Made by a program: the position numbers | Virus genome (UHGV): UHGV-0062059 | Source of the DNA: a virus | Direction: 5' to 3' (one strand) | DNA: 39,873 nt | In this document: positions 1 through 6,000 of the stretch, one piece after another | How the letters are laid out: each line of letters begins with the position of its first letter | Position numbering within the stretch: position 1 is the stretch's first letter

Positions 1-3000
1 TCACTCTGCCAGATGGCGCAATGCCATCTGGTATCACTTAAAGGTATTAAAAACAACTTTTTGTCTTTTTACCTTCCCGTTTCGCTCAAGTTAGTATAAA
101 AAAGCTGAACGAGAAACAGAAAACACTGTAAATATCAATATGTTATGAAAGATTTAGTCTAAATAATAGACTGCATAATACTACAAAACACAACATATCC
201 AGTCACTATGAATCAACTACTTAGATAGTATTAGTGACCTGAGGCAGAGCATTAGCGCAAGGTGATTTTTTGTCCTCTTGCGCTAATTTTTTGTCAACGG
301 ACTTGGTTAGTTGAATTTACAACCATGCTCAGTATCTCGATAAGCGCAGAGAAATGATGCAGTGGTGGGCGGATTGGCTTGATGAGAAGGTAGAGTGATC
401 CGCCTTAACAACTATCGAAGAGCACAAAGCCTTGTGTGTCTCATAGGCTATGAAACAATCATTTTACATGGTTACTTCACTACTTCCGCACAATATGATA
501 TCGTTCACAATCTAAAAATATTAATAATTTATCCATTACCGCGGTTAATGCCCGTCGCTTCCAACGGGCTTTTTTGTAAATTATATTTTTATTACCTTAT
601 ATTAATATTGGTAATATGTCTGCATGATGTTTTATATTTAATTTCGTTGACGTCAATATTTTTTGCCAATGTACTTACTTCTTTATGTGAGCAGTTCATA
701 TTTTTGACGCCAACGAAACATTTAGTGCTTCCCTTCTATTAAGTCTAACCTAGCTTTTATTCTTTCTATTTCTCTGCGCTGCCATGCCGCCTCGATATAG
801 AATAAGAGATCAGGTCTGACCCCCCATCTAGATCCTGCTGGCGTTATTTCAACGCGCTCAATGATGTCTTCCATTACCATCACTGGATTATCATCCTCAT
901 CAACAATGATGCTCCCGTCATTATCAGTCAGCGGCATTTCCCTTTGGCCAGTAATGACGTCATCATATACTGCGGGATAATCGTCATAGCAAAGAAAGGC
1001 ATAGCGGCATGTTGTGCTTTCTTCTTCCATGAGTCCGTGAGAAATAAGAACATCACGAAGTTGCTGCGCGATTACACCATGATGTATCCTCGCCCCTTCT
1101 TCCCCCTTTATAGCGACAGCGTTCAGCCATTTATAAGCGATATACCTGACGTCACCCCAGGCATCCAGCAATGCTTCGTCAGGAGAGACCGGCTCTGTCT
1201 TTAATGTTCCGTCACTGGTAATCACAGGATTGGAGCCAAGATAAACTGTCGAGAACCTGTTTCCCGGACCACCAAGAGCATTTACATTATCAAGATAAGG
1301 TTTAACATCTCCGTTCTCAAAAAGATGTTCGAGTGCGTTATATACCGCGCGACGTGGAGTACTGCTTCCGGAACCATGCAACGTTATCATTGCACCATCT
1401 GCTGAAGACGTTGTTTCACCTCCGCTAACGATTAATCTCTGAGCGGTAACATCATCAGACGGTACTTTCTTCGCAATAATGGCGTAATTACCCTCAAGTT
1501 TGACTTCCGCGCGAACTTGTCCTGATGTACCTGCATGGACAGTCAGTGACTGGACGGCAACATCATCTGTGAAATCAACGGGTACAGGAACCGTCCTCAC
1601 GCCTGACGTCGACATAAAAGTAGGAAGCGTTCTGTTAGGAGTGGCTCCGTAGACAAAATCCCTTGAAACAAATTCTTCCTGTTTAATTTTCACCCTGAAA
1701 CAATACAAATCAGCCGGGTGACCATCGTGAACATAAGGATATTTTCTGTTGTTATCCCCTATGCTCCATGGGTTTAGAAAGTCTTCCCCACCGAAAATGT
1801 AGTACAGCCAGTTGTCTTTGATACAAACTGAACCAACACCAACCGCAGAGTTAACTATTCCGCCCTGATAAATCTGATCAGTAACATTAACCCACTCTAC
1901 ATTATCCAGACTCCACTCATTGACGTTAACTCTGGTCATAAATGTTCTTGGATAATTTCCTGCATAACGGTTATCAGGTTCTCCTCCTTCCCACTCACCA
2001 AATGCGCGCTCACTGCCAAAAATAATCAGCTCATCGCCAACTTTGGCAAAAGGAAGGTTTGAGTGATGAACATTATTTGGGAAGCGAAGAGAATTCCATG
2101 ATGTACCTAAATCAGAGCTTCTGTGCAATGAACTACCGGGTTGAGTACTTAATGTCCCCCTGGTCGTCAGATACAGAATGCCATCATAATATTTTACACA
2201 TGGCTCAGATGCATTCGCCTCATATTCTACAGGTATGCGTCTGCGAACAAAGCTACCAGGAGAACCGAAAGCATCAGAGAAATAGAGTATCCCAAGCTCG
2301 CGTGGATCAATATCACCATTATGGTAGCCAACAGCAAAACTGTTATCGCTAATCGTCGCAAAACTGTGAATCTCAGTAACAGGAGTGCTTCCGTCAACAA
2401 AAGAAGGAATAGTTCCAAGACTGGTTTTTCTCCATGGTGACGAGTGAAATGATGTACCAAAACTCCAGTATCTACCCTCGTTATTCTGATCCACATCCTG
2501 GGTATTTTGCGTCGTAACTGTAAAAGTATTTTTATCAATAACAGTAGTCACCGTCATATTCCCGGTAACACCTGTAACACCAGAGTTTGAGAAGTTGACA
2601 AAATCACCAGCAAATAATCCGTGATCAGTAATGCGAATATAAGCGACTTGCTGATTTGCTGCTTTCGTTATACCACCATAAACGCGAAGGCTGCGACTCA
2701 TTGGGCGATCCCACAACTCTGCAACCTGCAGTTTATTTCCGCTCACGGTCCGCGTCTCAATTACAGCAAAAAGGCGATTTCTGACAACCCCCATACTCAT
2801 GCAGTGATAGTTAACTGTGGGATAGTTTTCATGTAAATCTGTAAGCCATTCCGGCGTTGTCCAGGTCTTCCCGTCATCTCCTGAGCGAACCCATGCAACA
2901 TGGAGGTTATTTACACCATGGCGGTCTCCAGCCATAAAAGGCGCATAGATGACATTGTCATATACAAACGTTTTATCCTGCGTCCAGGCGTTGTACCACG

Positions 3001-6000
3001 GTGTATCTGTAATTTTAAATAACTCTCCCTGGATAAAATCTTCAGAAGCATAAAAAAGAGGCTGACCCGGTATTCTCTCAAATAAAAAACGAGCATTTTT
3101 AAATCGACTGACATCTGGAAGAGTTGATACTTTAAAAGTAAGCCCTCGCCCATCTATCTTTTCACCACCTGTTGCAACAGAAAGTAATTCTGATAGAGCT
3201 GATGTGTCATCATGAACACCATCACCAATAGCCCCCCAACCTCTTACATCATAACTGTCTCTCCATCTTGCTATCTGAAGTTTTGGGTATTTATTCGCTC
3301 CATCTGGGTCTTCTAATTGCTGCCGTAACTGATCAGGATCATACTTCAGCACATTAGGAAAATAGAACTGCTGCGCACCATACGCATCATAAACAGCCAT
3401 AGAATGGCCTTGCACGGTAACGAATTTGGCAATCTGTCCGTTATATACCGGATATCCAGCAGCGTTAATGATTATTGGTTGCGAAACAGGAATGTGAGAA
3501 CCGTCTTCGTTCTCTACATAAACCTGAATCTGGTTTTCAGGATTTACCGGGTCAGTGTCAATTTTACCGATATAAATTTTGCCATTGGCTACGGCTTTAA
3601 AAGAACGCGCCATAGTGAAGAGTTGCGAAGGCATACTCACTACAACATTGGCTGTAATGTCTGTCATTTAATTTGCTCCAGATACAAGGAATCGCCGCAG
3701 CATTGCCACAGTGATGCATTATTAATCAAACAAAGAGACCACTGTGGTCTTATTGAGGATGCAACCAGCAGATAATAAGATGCCGATCCACTCACAAAAG
3801 CGAGGCATCAAGAATGGGAAGAGATGACCCGCAATTTAATCTGCGGCTACCTTACGAATTAAAGGAAAAACTAAAACAGCGAGCCAAATCCAATGGCCGC
3901 TCTCTTAATTCAGAATTAGTTCAGATAGTGACTGATGCTGTATCAAAGCCATCCAAAATTTCAGGCTATCGAGACGATGCGGAACGCATCGCTGATGAGC
4001 AGTCAGAGCTTGTTAAGAAGATGGTGTTTGATACGCTGAAGGATTTGTACAAAAAACCCACCTGAAGGTGGGTTAATTTTTGCATTTACCTGGGCCATAT
4101 TGACTACTTATAAAATGAGATCAATATTTAATCGCCCAATAACGGGTGTATGTTGAGGTATATCATGGCGAAAAAACCAGGTGAAAACACAGGAAAAAAC
4201 GGCGGAATATACCAAGAAGTTGGCCCCCGCGGCGGTAAGAAAGACAATTTTGCAACCGTCAAGGACAACGAAAGGCTTCCACCAACAACAAAGCCAGGTC
4301 ATGGCTGGGTATTGGATAAGCGAACTCCAGACAGCAAAAAGTAATAATCAAGCCGGGTCACTCCGGCTTTTTGATATGTCGCTCGCAGAACTCAACAAGC
4401 CTGCTCATTAAGTAGCAGTAAGTCTCGTTGGCTCTTCCTGGTTCAACATCAACACCTACCCTTGAGCAGATATCGAATGCCATGTGAGCGCACTCATGGG
4501 CAATAGTAGATAGTTTGCCATTGAACACGCCTATCACATGCAAAACACCATTCTCGCTACTCATTGTATGAGACGCTCCGTTGGCGTCCGAGTCATGCAC
4601 GTCAACGCCAAGTTTTTGATGCAGGCGTTGCCATTCTGGAAAGTCTCTACAAAACACAATTGTACCGCTCTCAAAGAGCGGAACGAGCATCTTTGGTACG
4701 TTTCCAATGTTAACTTTTTTCATGGTATCCTGCGCAAAACTAAGGAGGTTGGTGTGTCTGATTCTATGAGTTACGCTGTGCTAGTTGCCGCAACTCTATT
4801 TCTGGGGATAGGGTTGCAGATTGCGTGGTTCTTTTTTTCTAGTTTTATTAAACGTAAAAGAATTGAATCAAGGATATCTGAGATTTCTATTGCTATAGGG
4901 AAAAATGCTGAAAATCCAGAGAATGAGGCCTGCGCACTGAATTACCTTAAAGAAAAGTTTTCCCCTGAAAAATTTGAAAACAGAATTACTGATGCTCTTG
5001 GATTGGTAATATCAGTAATTCATATGCCACTAAGTTTGCTGATAACAGTGTGGTACTTCGCCATGATCGCCGGAAGAATATTTGGTTTCATGAATATAGA
5101 GCCTGTAGTTCTTTGGGTTCCAATGATACTGCAATTGTTGTTAAGCGTTGCTATCTTTATTTTTTCTGTTTTTATAAAAATTGTCTTCGGAAGATACCCC
5201 GGAGAAGCGAAGGGATTTAATAAAGAATTCATAAAAACTATAAAATAAATGCCGTCCTTGGCTTACAGTGCTACTGCCGGGTAGCTTCGTTAACTAAGAG
5301 CGGGCGCACGGCAGTAGCCGCCTGATTTAGCGCTCTTTCATAAGCTGGCGTTCCAGCTTTAGTGTTTGCCAGACGTAAGAGCGCATTCCTTGCTGCTTTG
5401 GATTCATACAAGCGCATCATTGCACCGAAACCAGCCTCAAGCCCCATTGATACGCCAAGAGTCGTAGTTGCGCCAATCGTCCTTATCCTGTTGGCTTGCG
5501 ATTGCCCCGTCTGAGTTACTACATTTGCGGTGTCTGATCTTGCTGCTTGCTGTAGAACTTCATGAAGAGCATCAAGTTCTTTCATGTGCTTTCCAGAAAA
5601 AATAGTGTTGTAAATTTCACCGCCTGACTGAGATTTCAGCTTATTAACTTCAGTGATGAACTTGGCTGGAGAGTCACCGGCCTTTTCCGCTATTTTGCTG
5701 ACGTAAGCTGCACGCATAGCATCTTTCCCTTTATCATCAAGTGCGCTCCAGATTCGTTTCACGTCAGATGGTTTTCTGCTTAATACAACGGTATTTATAA
5801 GTTCAGGACTGGCTTCACTGCTTGCCTTGTTGAGCTTGTTAGCAATGTTTTTATTAAGCACCTTATTATAAACGTTTGCATAATCGGAATTTGCTTTAAG
5901 GTATTTTGCTGCGTCTGAAGCACCGAGGTTTTTGGCAACTGCGTTACGAAGGTCTTTTGACATTGCATTCTCTACCATATTGGTAGCTGCTTTTGCCTGG

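Follow-up and report, generated by a model that had tools for sequence, protein, structure and literature searches.

A predicted K1 endosialidase tailspike, allelic to CUS-3 siaK1, in the P22-like element UHGV-0062059

Background

The virus genome UHGV-0062059, analysed here over its whole stretch of 39,873 nucleotides (nt; hereafter the window), carries a long gene that an initial annotation, made from the sequence alone, had read as a chimeric tailspike with a P22-type head-binding domain, a sialidase-fold receptor domain and a self-cleaving C-terminal chaperone. The locus raises the question of which receptor, and with it which host, such a protein would serve, and whether the chimera had been seen before. 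Our analysis indicates that the gene is already known, being by sequence an allele of siaK1 of CUS-3, a prophage of Escherichia coli K1, and that its product is very probably the tailspike with which a P22-like prophage (Lederbergvirus) of E. coli K1 destroys its receptor, K1 polysialic acid being the predicted receptor and determinant of host range. The earlier interpretation is supported in this respect, but it had missed that the chimera was already published.

Relation of the tailspike to SiaK1 of CUS-3

The region 722-3667 was found to consist of one single long open reading frame (ORF) on the minus strand (Table 1); its span had been given correctly at the outset, with the strand left unstated. 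Comparison with the CUS-3 genome (GenBank:CP000711) revealed 99.1% nt identity to siaK1 across 100% of the gene. The two products are of equal length (981 amino acids, aa) and have an equal domain order, namely a P22-type N-terminus, an endosialidase core and a cleavable chaperone, and they share 98.9% aa identity, the CUS-3 protein (GenBank:ABQ88383.1, GenBank:CAJ29292.1) differing by 11 of 981 residues. These substitutions are scattered (V9I, P43T, I59V, P121T, A207V, D454G, V480A, G767R, T807I, I816V and A832T), and none of the 11 falls on a catalytic or dyad residue as identified below. The GenBank record of CUS-3 calls the siaK1 product "endosialidase tailspike protein" and assigns it endo-alpha-sialidase activity (GO:0016996) under evidence code IDA (PMID 16689790). 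A review includes CAJ29292.1 among the endo-N-acetylneuraminidases, with a mass of 109 kDa, and presents the CUS-3 protein as a chimera whose N-terminal domain also occurs in P22, Sf6 and HK620 and whose catalytic domain is common to K1F.

Closer relatives were found among E. coli genomes and phage isolates. The tailspike protein is identical (0 differences) to WP_187210376.1 of E. coli MS20659, and the tail gene of phage vB_EcoP-720R6 has 99.5% nt identity, with a protein that differs at 3 positions. Among 5,426 complete E. coli genomes, window positions 1-4200 are covered to 80% or more in at least 149. RefSeq names the protein no more precisely than "phage tailspike protein", and in one phage record it appears as "tail fibers protein".

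Domain organisation and active-site residues

A Pfam profile search of the tailspike, in which every match was above the curated cut-off, divided the protein into the modules listed in Table 1. The assignment of the first ~110 aa to a P22 gp9-type head-binding domain was borne out both by the Head_binding profile and by the alignment of aa 1-118 with the head-binding structures of the Sf6 and P22 tailspikes (PDB 7sg7, 2vnl and 1lkt; E about 9e-45 to 9e-65); PDB 8tvr was also among the matches to aa 1-113. The profile and structure searches proposed for endosialidase and peptidase S74 domains returned full endosialidase profiles and the Peptidase_S74 profile, and aa 145-817 aligned end to end with the K1F endosialidase endoNF (PDB 1v0e and 3gvl; E = 0). 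With the whole protein as query, aa 698-979 aligned with the endoNF chaperone structure 3gw6 (E 1e-94), whereas the C-terminal 204 aa alone gave an E value of 1.8e-70 with an alignment extending to aa 979. The central domain is accordingly assigned, by homology, to the phage endosialidases proper of family GH58, beyond a mere sialidase fold. A scan of the tailspike for the pattern S-x-D-x-G-x-x-[WFY] yielded only 2 matches, both inside the endosialidase propeller match; these are the two Asp-boxes noticed earlier, and they align with SGDDGQTW and SRDIGQTW of endoNF, respectively.

The key catalytic residues of the K1F tailspike, as listed in a deep mutational scanning study, are H350, R549, E581, R596 and R647 (PMC12632334). 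In the alignment with 1v0e and 3gvl, the corresponding columns are occupied by H250, R456, E488, R503 and R554 of the window tailspike, respectively, and the numbering was checked with the R647A mutant structure (PDB 3gvj), which has Ala exactly at the R647 column. Autocleavage of endoNF depends on a centre formed by the S911/K916 dyad, aided by R897, which lies in the triple beta-helix (PMC8326128). Ser818 of the window tailspike is matched by the substituted Ala in the S911A structure 3gw6; Lys823 aligns with K916, and R804, located in the stalk, with R897. In addition, the alignment with the mature endoNF construct (1v0e) ends exactly at T817. The S-DGTL-K dyad and the C-terminal chaperone predicted initially were upheld in this way (S818/K823, PF13884 and 3gw6), except that the domain is 164 aa long instead of ~150 aa. 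Masses computed for the predicted mature chain and the predicted freed domain are 90.6 kDa and 18.7 kDa, respectively. The tailspike ORF, its motifs and its domains are confirmed by these observations, and a chance origin is ruled out.

By homology, steps of trimerisation, autocleavage, attachment and hydrolysis can be proposed. The 109-kDa precursor would trimerise, with the C-terminal chaperone (aa 818-981) nucleating the folding of the stalk, by analogy with P22 gp9 and K1F endoNF. After folding of the stalk, the Ser818/Lys823 dyad, with help from Arg804, would cut before Ser818, thereby freeing the chaperone and leaving the mature subunit. The head-binding domain would then plug the trimer into the tail of a P22-type virion, and the propeller would depolymerise the alpha-2,8-polysialic acid capsule, so that the virion may reach the outer membrane.

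Predicted receptor and host range

The prediction of polysialic acid, i.e., the K1 capsule, as receptor was strengthened by the endoNF alignment, the conserved catalytic residues and the near identity to SiaK1, as well as by the capsule genes of the closest host. If K1 polysialic acid is the receptor, the host range would therefore be set by the K1 capsule. The closest genome, E. coli MS20659, is 100% identical over window positions 1-4200, and the search for a kps/neu locus, carried out on this closest complete genome, revealed a K1 locus at 3,391,779-3,407,777 that contains kpsF-E-D-U-C-S, the alpha-2,8-polysialyltransferase gene (neuS), neuC, neuA, neuB, a neuD-type acetyltransferase gene and kpsT/M. 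Further top matches came from named K1 strains, including RS218, CE10 (O7:K1) and serovar K1 isolates. It was also noticed that the MS20659 gene at the neuE position (L004 21065-22214) is annotated as frameshifted, which may reflect either an error of sequencing or, in a lysogen of a K1-specific phage, a mutation that affects the capsule. A literature search on strain MS20659 found no paper.

Some observations weigh against K1 polysialic acid as the receptor of the window tailspike: 1) the propeller has a 7-aa insertion relative to endoNF (FVDGSTP, aa 424-430, nt ~2378-2398), 2) Met760 (nt 1388-1390) takes the place of Q853 of endoNF, a presumed part of the polysialic-acid binding site in the stalk, and 3) the capsule type of the window's own host is predicted from that of its relatives, because the best complete E. 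coli genome match to window positions 15000-39873, again MS20659 (99% identity), has a coverage of 80%. The 11 differences from CUS-3 SiaK1 include neither the insertion nor Met760.

Among the alternatives, the one that survives best is that the prophage is defective and the gene a relic within it that only looks intact, never built into virions and setting no host range. IS100 has inserted into the early region of the MS20659 copy, and a remnant of a CUS-3-type integrase gene, together with the loss of the capsule-O-acetylating gene neuO, downstream of the tailspike gene leaves traces of past rearrangement. However, the P22-type virion module is complete in the window and its ORFs are uninterrupted, as are those of the lysis genes and of a lambda-type integrase; an attR is present too, and the stretch matching the IS100 site of MS20659 has no transposase ORF of the size found in IS100. 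Moreover, the tailspike ORF is intact over its 981 codons and diverges by less than 1.2% from that of CUS-3, and phage isolates with such a tailspike have been deposited (vB_EcoP-720R6 and phiv205-1). We regard the relic as unlikely.

Less probable still is that the tailspike binds or cleaves another sialic-acid polymer, such as O-acetylated polysialic acid or the mixed linkages of the K92 type, in which case the prediction of the K1 receptor would be only approximate. An identity to endoNF of roughly 75% (estimated by eye), the 7-aa insertion and the Q-to-M change at the presumed stalk binding residue would fit such a shift, as would the usual linkage of CUS-3-type phages to neuO. Against it, the catalytic residues are all kept, the annotation of the CUS-3 protein, which is 98.9% identical and belongs to a K1-specific phage, records an assayed endo-alpha-sialidase, and the carrier hosts have the K1 neu cluster; a different polymer is, in our view, very improbable. 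The idea that the central domain is devoid of catalysis and acts only in binding, in the manner of a lectin, for which nothing was found in favour and which was raised only since inactive endosialidase point mutants that bind polysialic acid exist (R647A, PDB 3gvj), can be given almost no weight, the residues at all five catalytic positions being of the wild type. Hydrolysis of K1 polysialic acid is thus retained as the predicted function of the tailspike.

The surrounding prophage

Upstream of the tailspike gene and on the same strand lies a P22-type virion module encoding terminase, portal, scaffold, P22 coat, gp4, gp10, an Sf6-type needle knob and ejection proteins, with the tailspike gene at its end. 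The nearest relatives of the element belong to Lederbergvirus. In CUS-3, siaK1 is followed downstream by neuO, which bears AAGACTC repeats, and then by int, whereas no AAGACTC dimer (the poly-psi repeat of neuO) was found in the whole window with 1 mismatch allowed. The segment of CUS-3 that bears neuO (L001 7038-7875) is absent from the window, and the deletion junction was located at 630-647. A search for a direct repeat flanking this deletion gave no evidence of repeat-mediated excision, the junction 18-mer occurring (exact match) only once in CUS-3. What is left of a CUS-3-type int is an 84-nt remnant of its 3' end at about 315-400. The ORF at 395-742 (plus strand, 115 aa), which overlaps the stop of the tailspike gene, was considered a probable non-gene, as it lies in AT-rich intergenic sequence and has no Pfam match; its counterpart is only "hypothetical" in 720R6 and unannotated in MS20659.

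Careful examination of the ends of the element revealed a lambda/434-type P-arm at about 90-330, which together with the lambda att core forms an attR beside the tailspike gene, and a lambda-type integrase gene at the opposite end. Consistent with these features, the prophage copy in MS20659 is situated between ybhC and ybhB/bioA, the lambda attB site. The CUS-3 record, in contrast, contains another integrase, of the CUS-3 type, adjoining attL; the integration site of CUS-3 is presumably argW. In the immI-like region of the window, mnt is present and the ant gene is absent, and the surroundings of CUS-3 differ in ant. The element is thus a CUS-3-related mosaic and, because it lacks the AAGACTC repeat of neuO, not CUS-3 in the strict sense. 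Since other genomes carry the same arrangement with the acyltransferase gene retained, the form without neuO seems to have arisen by deletion.

Table 1. Coordinates of the tailspike gene, its predicted domains and motifs, and neighbouring features in the UHGV-0062059 window.
Feature	Protein (aa)	Window (nt)	Strand	Evidence or remark
Tailspike gene (predicted siaK1 allele)	1-981	722-3667	-	ORF with ATG start, 981 aa; precursor 109.3 kDa (computed)
Head-binding (particle-attachment) domain, P22-type	1-113	3329-3667	-	Pfam PF09008 Head_binding, E 1.2e-66, profile 1-113 of 113
Linker, junction of P22-like and endosialidase modules	114-145	3233-3328	-	Gap between Pfam matches; endoNF alignment begins at aa 145
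Endosialidase N-terminal extension	146-212	3032-3232	-	Pfam PF12218 End_N_terminal, E 8.9e-37
Six-bladed beta-propeller, predicted catalytic domain with both Asp-boxes	213-662	1682-3031	-	Pfam PF12217 End_beta_propel, E 7.9e-233, profile 1-367 of 367
Asp-box 1	262-269	2861-2884	-	SGDDGKTW
Beta-barrel nested in the propeller	324-406	2450-2698	-	Pfam PF12195 End_beta_barrel, E 1.2e-46, profile 1-83 of 83
Asp-box 2	517-524	2096-2119	-	SSDLGTSW
Stalk, including R804	663-817	1217-1681	-	Pfam PF12219 End_tail_spike, E 9e-78, full profile length
Predicted C-terminal intramolecular chaperone/autocleavage domain, 18.7 kDa	818-981	725-1216	-	Pfam PF13884 Peptidase_S74 at aa 818-878, E 1.6e-10
S-DGTL-K motif, S818 to K823	818-823	1199-1216	-	
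Lambda att core GCTTTTTTATACTAA		91-105	-	attR beside the tailspike gene
Mnt/Arc-type repressor, divergent neighbour of the tailspike gene (immI-like region)		3814-4065	+	Pfam Arc and Repressor_Mnt; annotation in MS20659 and 720R6
Integrase, lambda-type		38803-39873	+	Match to lambda Arm-binding domain

Other features of the window

A DnaB-type replicative helicase of 797 aa (25698-28091, minus strand) has LAGLIDADG and homing-endonuclease matches at aa ~393-454, between the N-terminal (aa 3-95) and C-terminal (aa 540-762) domains of DnaB, so that it most likely carries an intein; in MS20659, this ORF is annotated by PGAP as two separate "partial" genes. Adjacent genes for tRNA-Thr(tgt) and tRNA-Asn(gtt) are located at 21838-21993 (minus strand), between the antiterminator and lysis regions. 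In the early-left region, an Rfam Lambda_thermo element (cIII thermoregulator) was found at 32110-32168 (plus strand) with a score of 88.5 bits.

Significance

The tailspike predicts that the prophage targets K1-encapsulated E. coli, i.e., neonatal meningitis and extraintestinal pathogenic E. coli lineages, and it presents a clean case of modular tailspike evolution. Both the K1 targeting and the chimeric build were established for CUS-3 in 2006-2007, the build having been described in 2006, and have entered reviews; the window adds an allele and no new concept. Its practical value is limited to annotation, and the prophage may in addition be used as a marker of K1 hosts.

Comparison with known tailspikes

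Apart from SiaK1, the window tailspike can be compared with three groups of proteins, each of which shares a different part of it. With endoNF of the T7-like phage K1F (1v0e, 3gvl and 3gw6), it has the catalytic core, stalk and chaperone in common, colinear from aa 145 to 979, with the catalytic residues and the Ser/Lys dyad kept and the by-eye identity of roughly 75% given above. The two proteins differ in the N-terminal anchor, which is T7-fibre-like in K1F but P22 gp9-like in the window tailspike, and the latter also has, besides the insertion in the propeller, a longer and more acidic segment in the chaperone domain. With the tailspikes of P22 (gp9), Sf6 (gp14) and HK620, it shares a homologous head-binding domain (aa 1-113) and an equal place in the P22-type virion gene module. 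However, the receptor domains of those proteins are right-handed beta-helix O-antigen endoglycosidases without a freed chaperone, whereas that of the window tailspike is a predicted beta-propeller endosialidase with a C-terminal domain that would be cleaved off.

The third is the tail fibre ORF7 (GenBank:QTH80017.1, L005 2542-5661) of vB_EcoP_ZX5, an epsilon15-like temperate phage of the genus Uetakevirus, the authors of which noted the domain content of this endosialidase tail fibre. ORF7 contains the same endosialidase and chaperone cassette as window positions 754-3146, with 99.5% nt identity over nt 522-2914 of the gene and 96% aa identity over aa 134-980, whereas its first ~190 aa are unrelated and lack a Head_binding domain, and its last ~15 aa differ. 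A cassette that diverges by less than 1% at the nt level stands on a P22-like anchor in the window and on an unrelated anchor in ZX5, and this therefore points to a very recent exchange of modules between phage genera. P22-like prophages that contain the cassette occupy two different attachment sites, and some of them have neuO whereas others lack it. As to whether the K1 receptor cassette is undergoing a very recent and still ongoing shuffling in K1 E. coli, from one temperate podovirus to another and with defined breakpoints at about aa 134-174 and aa 966-971, the case for and against seems evenly balanced. If this were true, carriage of an endosialidase would no longer be coupled to capsule O-acetylation in the neuO-less lineage that occupies lambda attB. 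The cassette of ZX5 extends the known story of modular exchange among these tailspikes without changing it.

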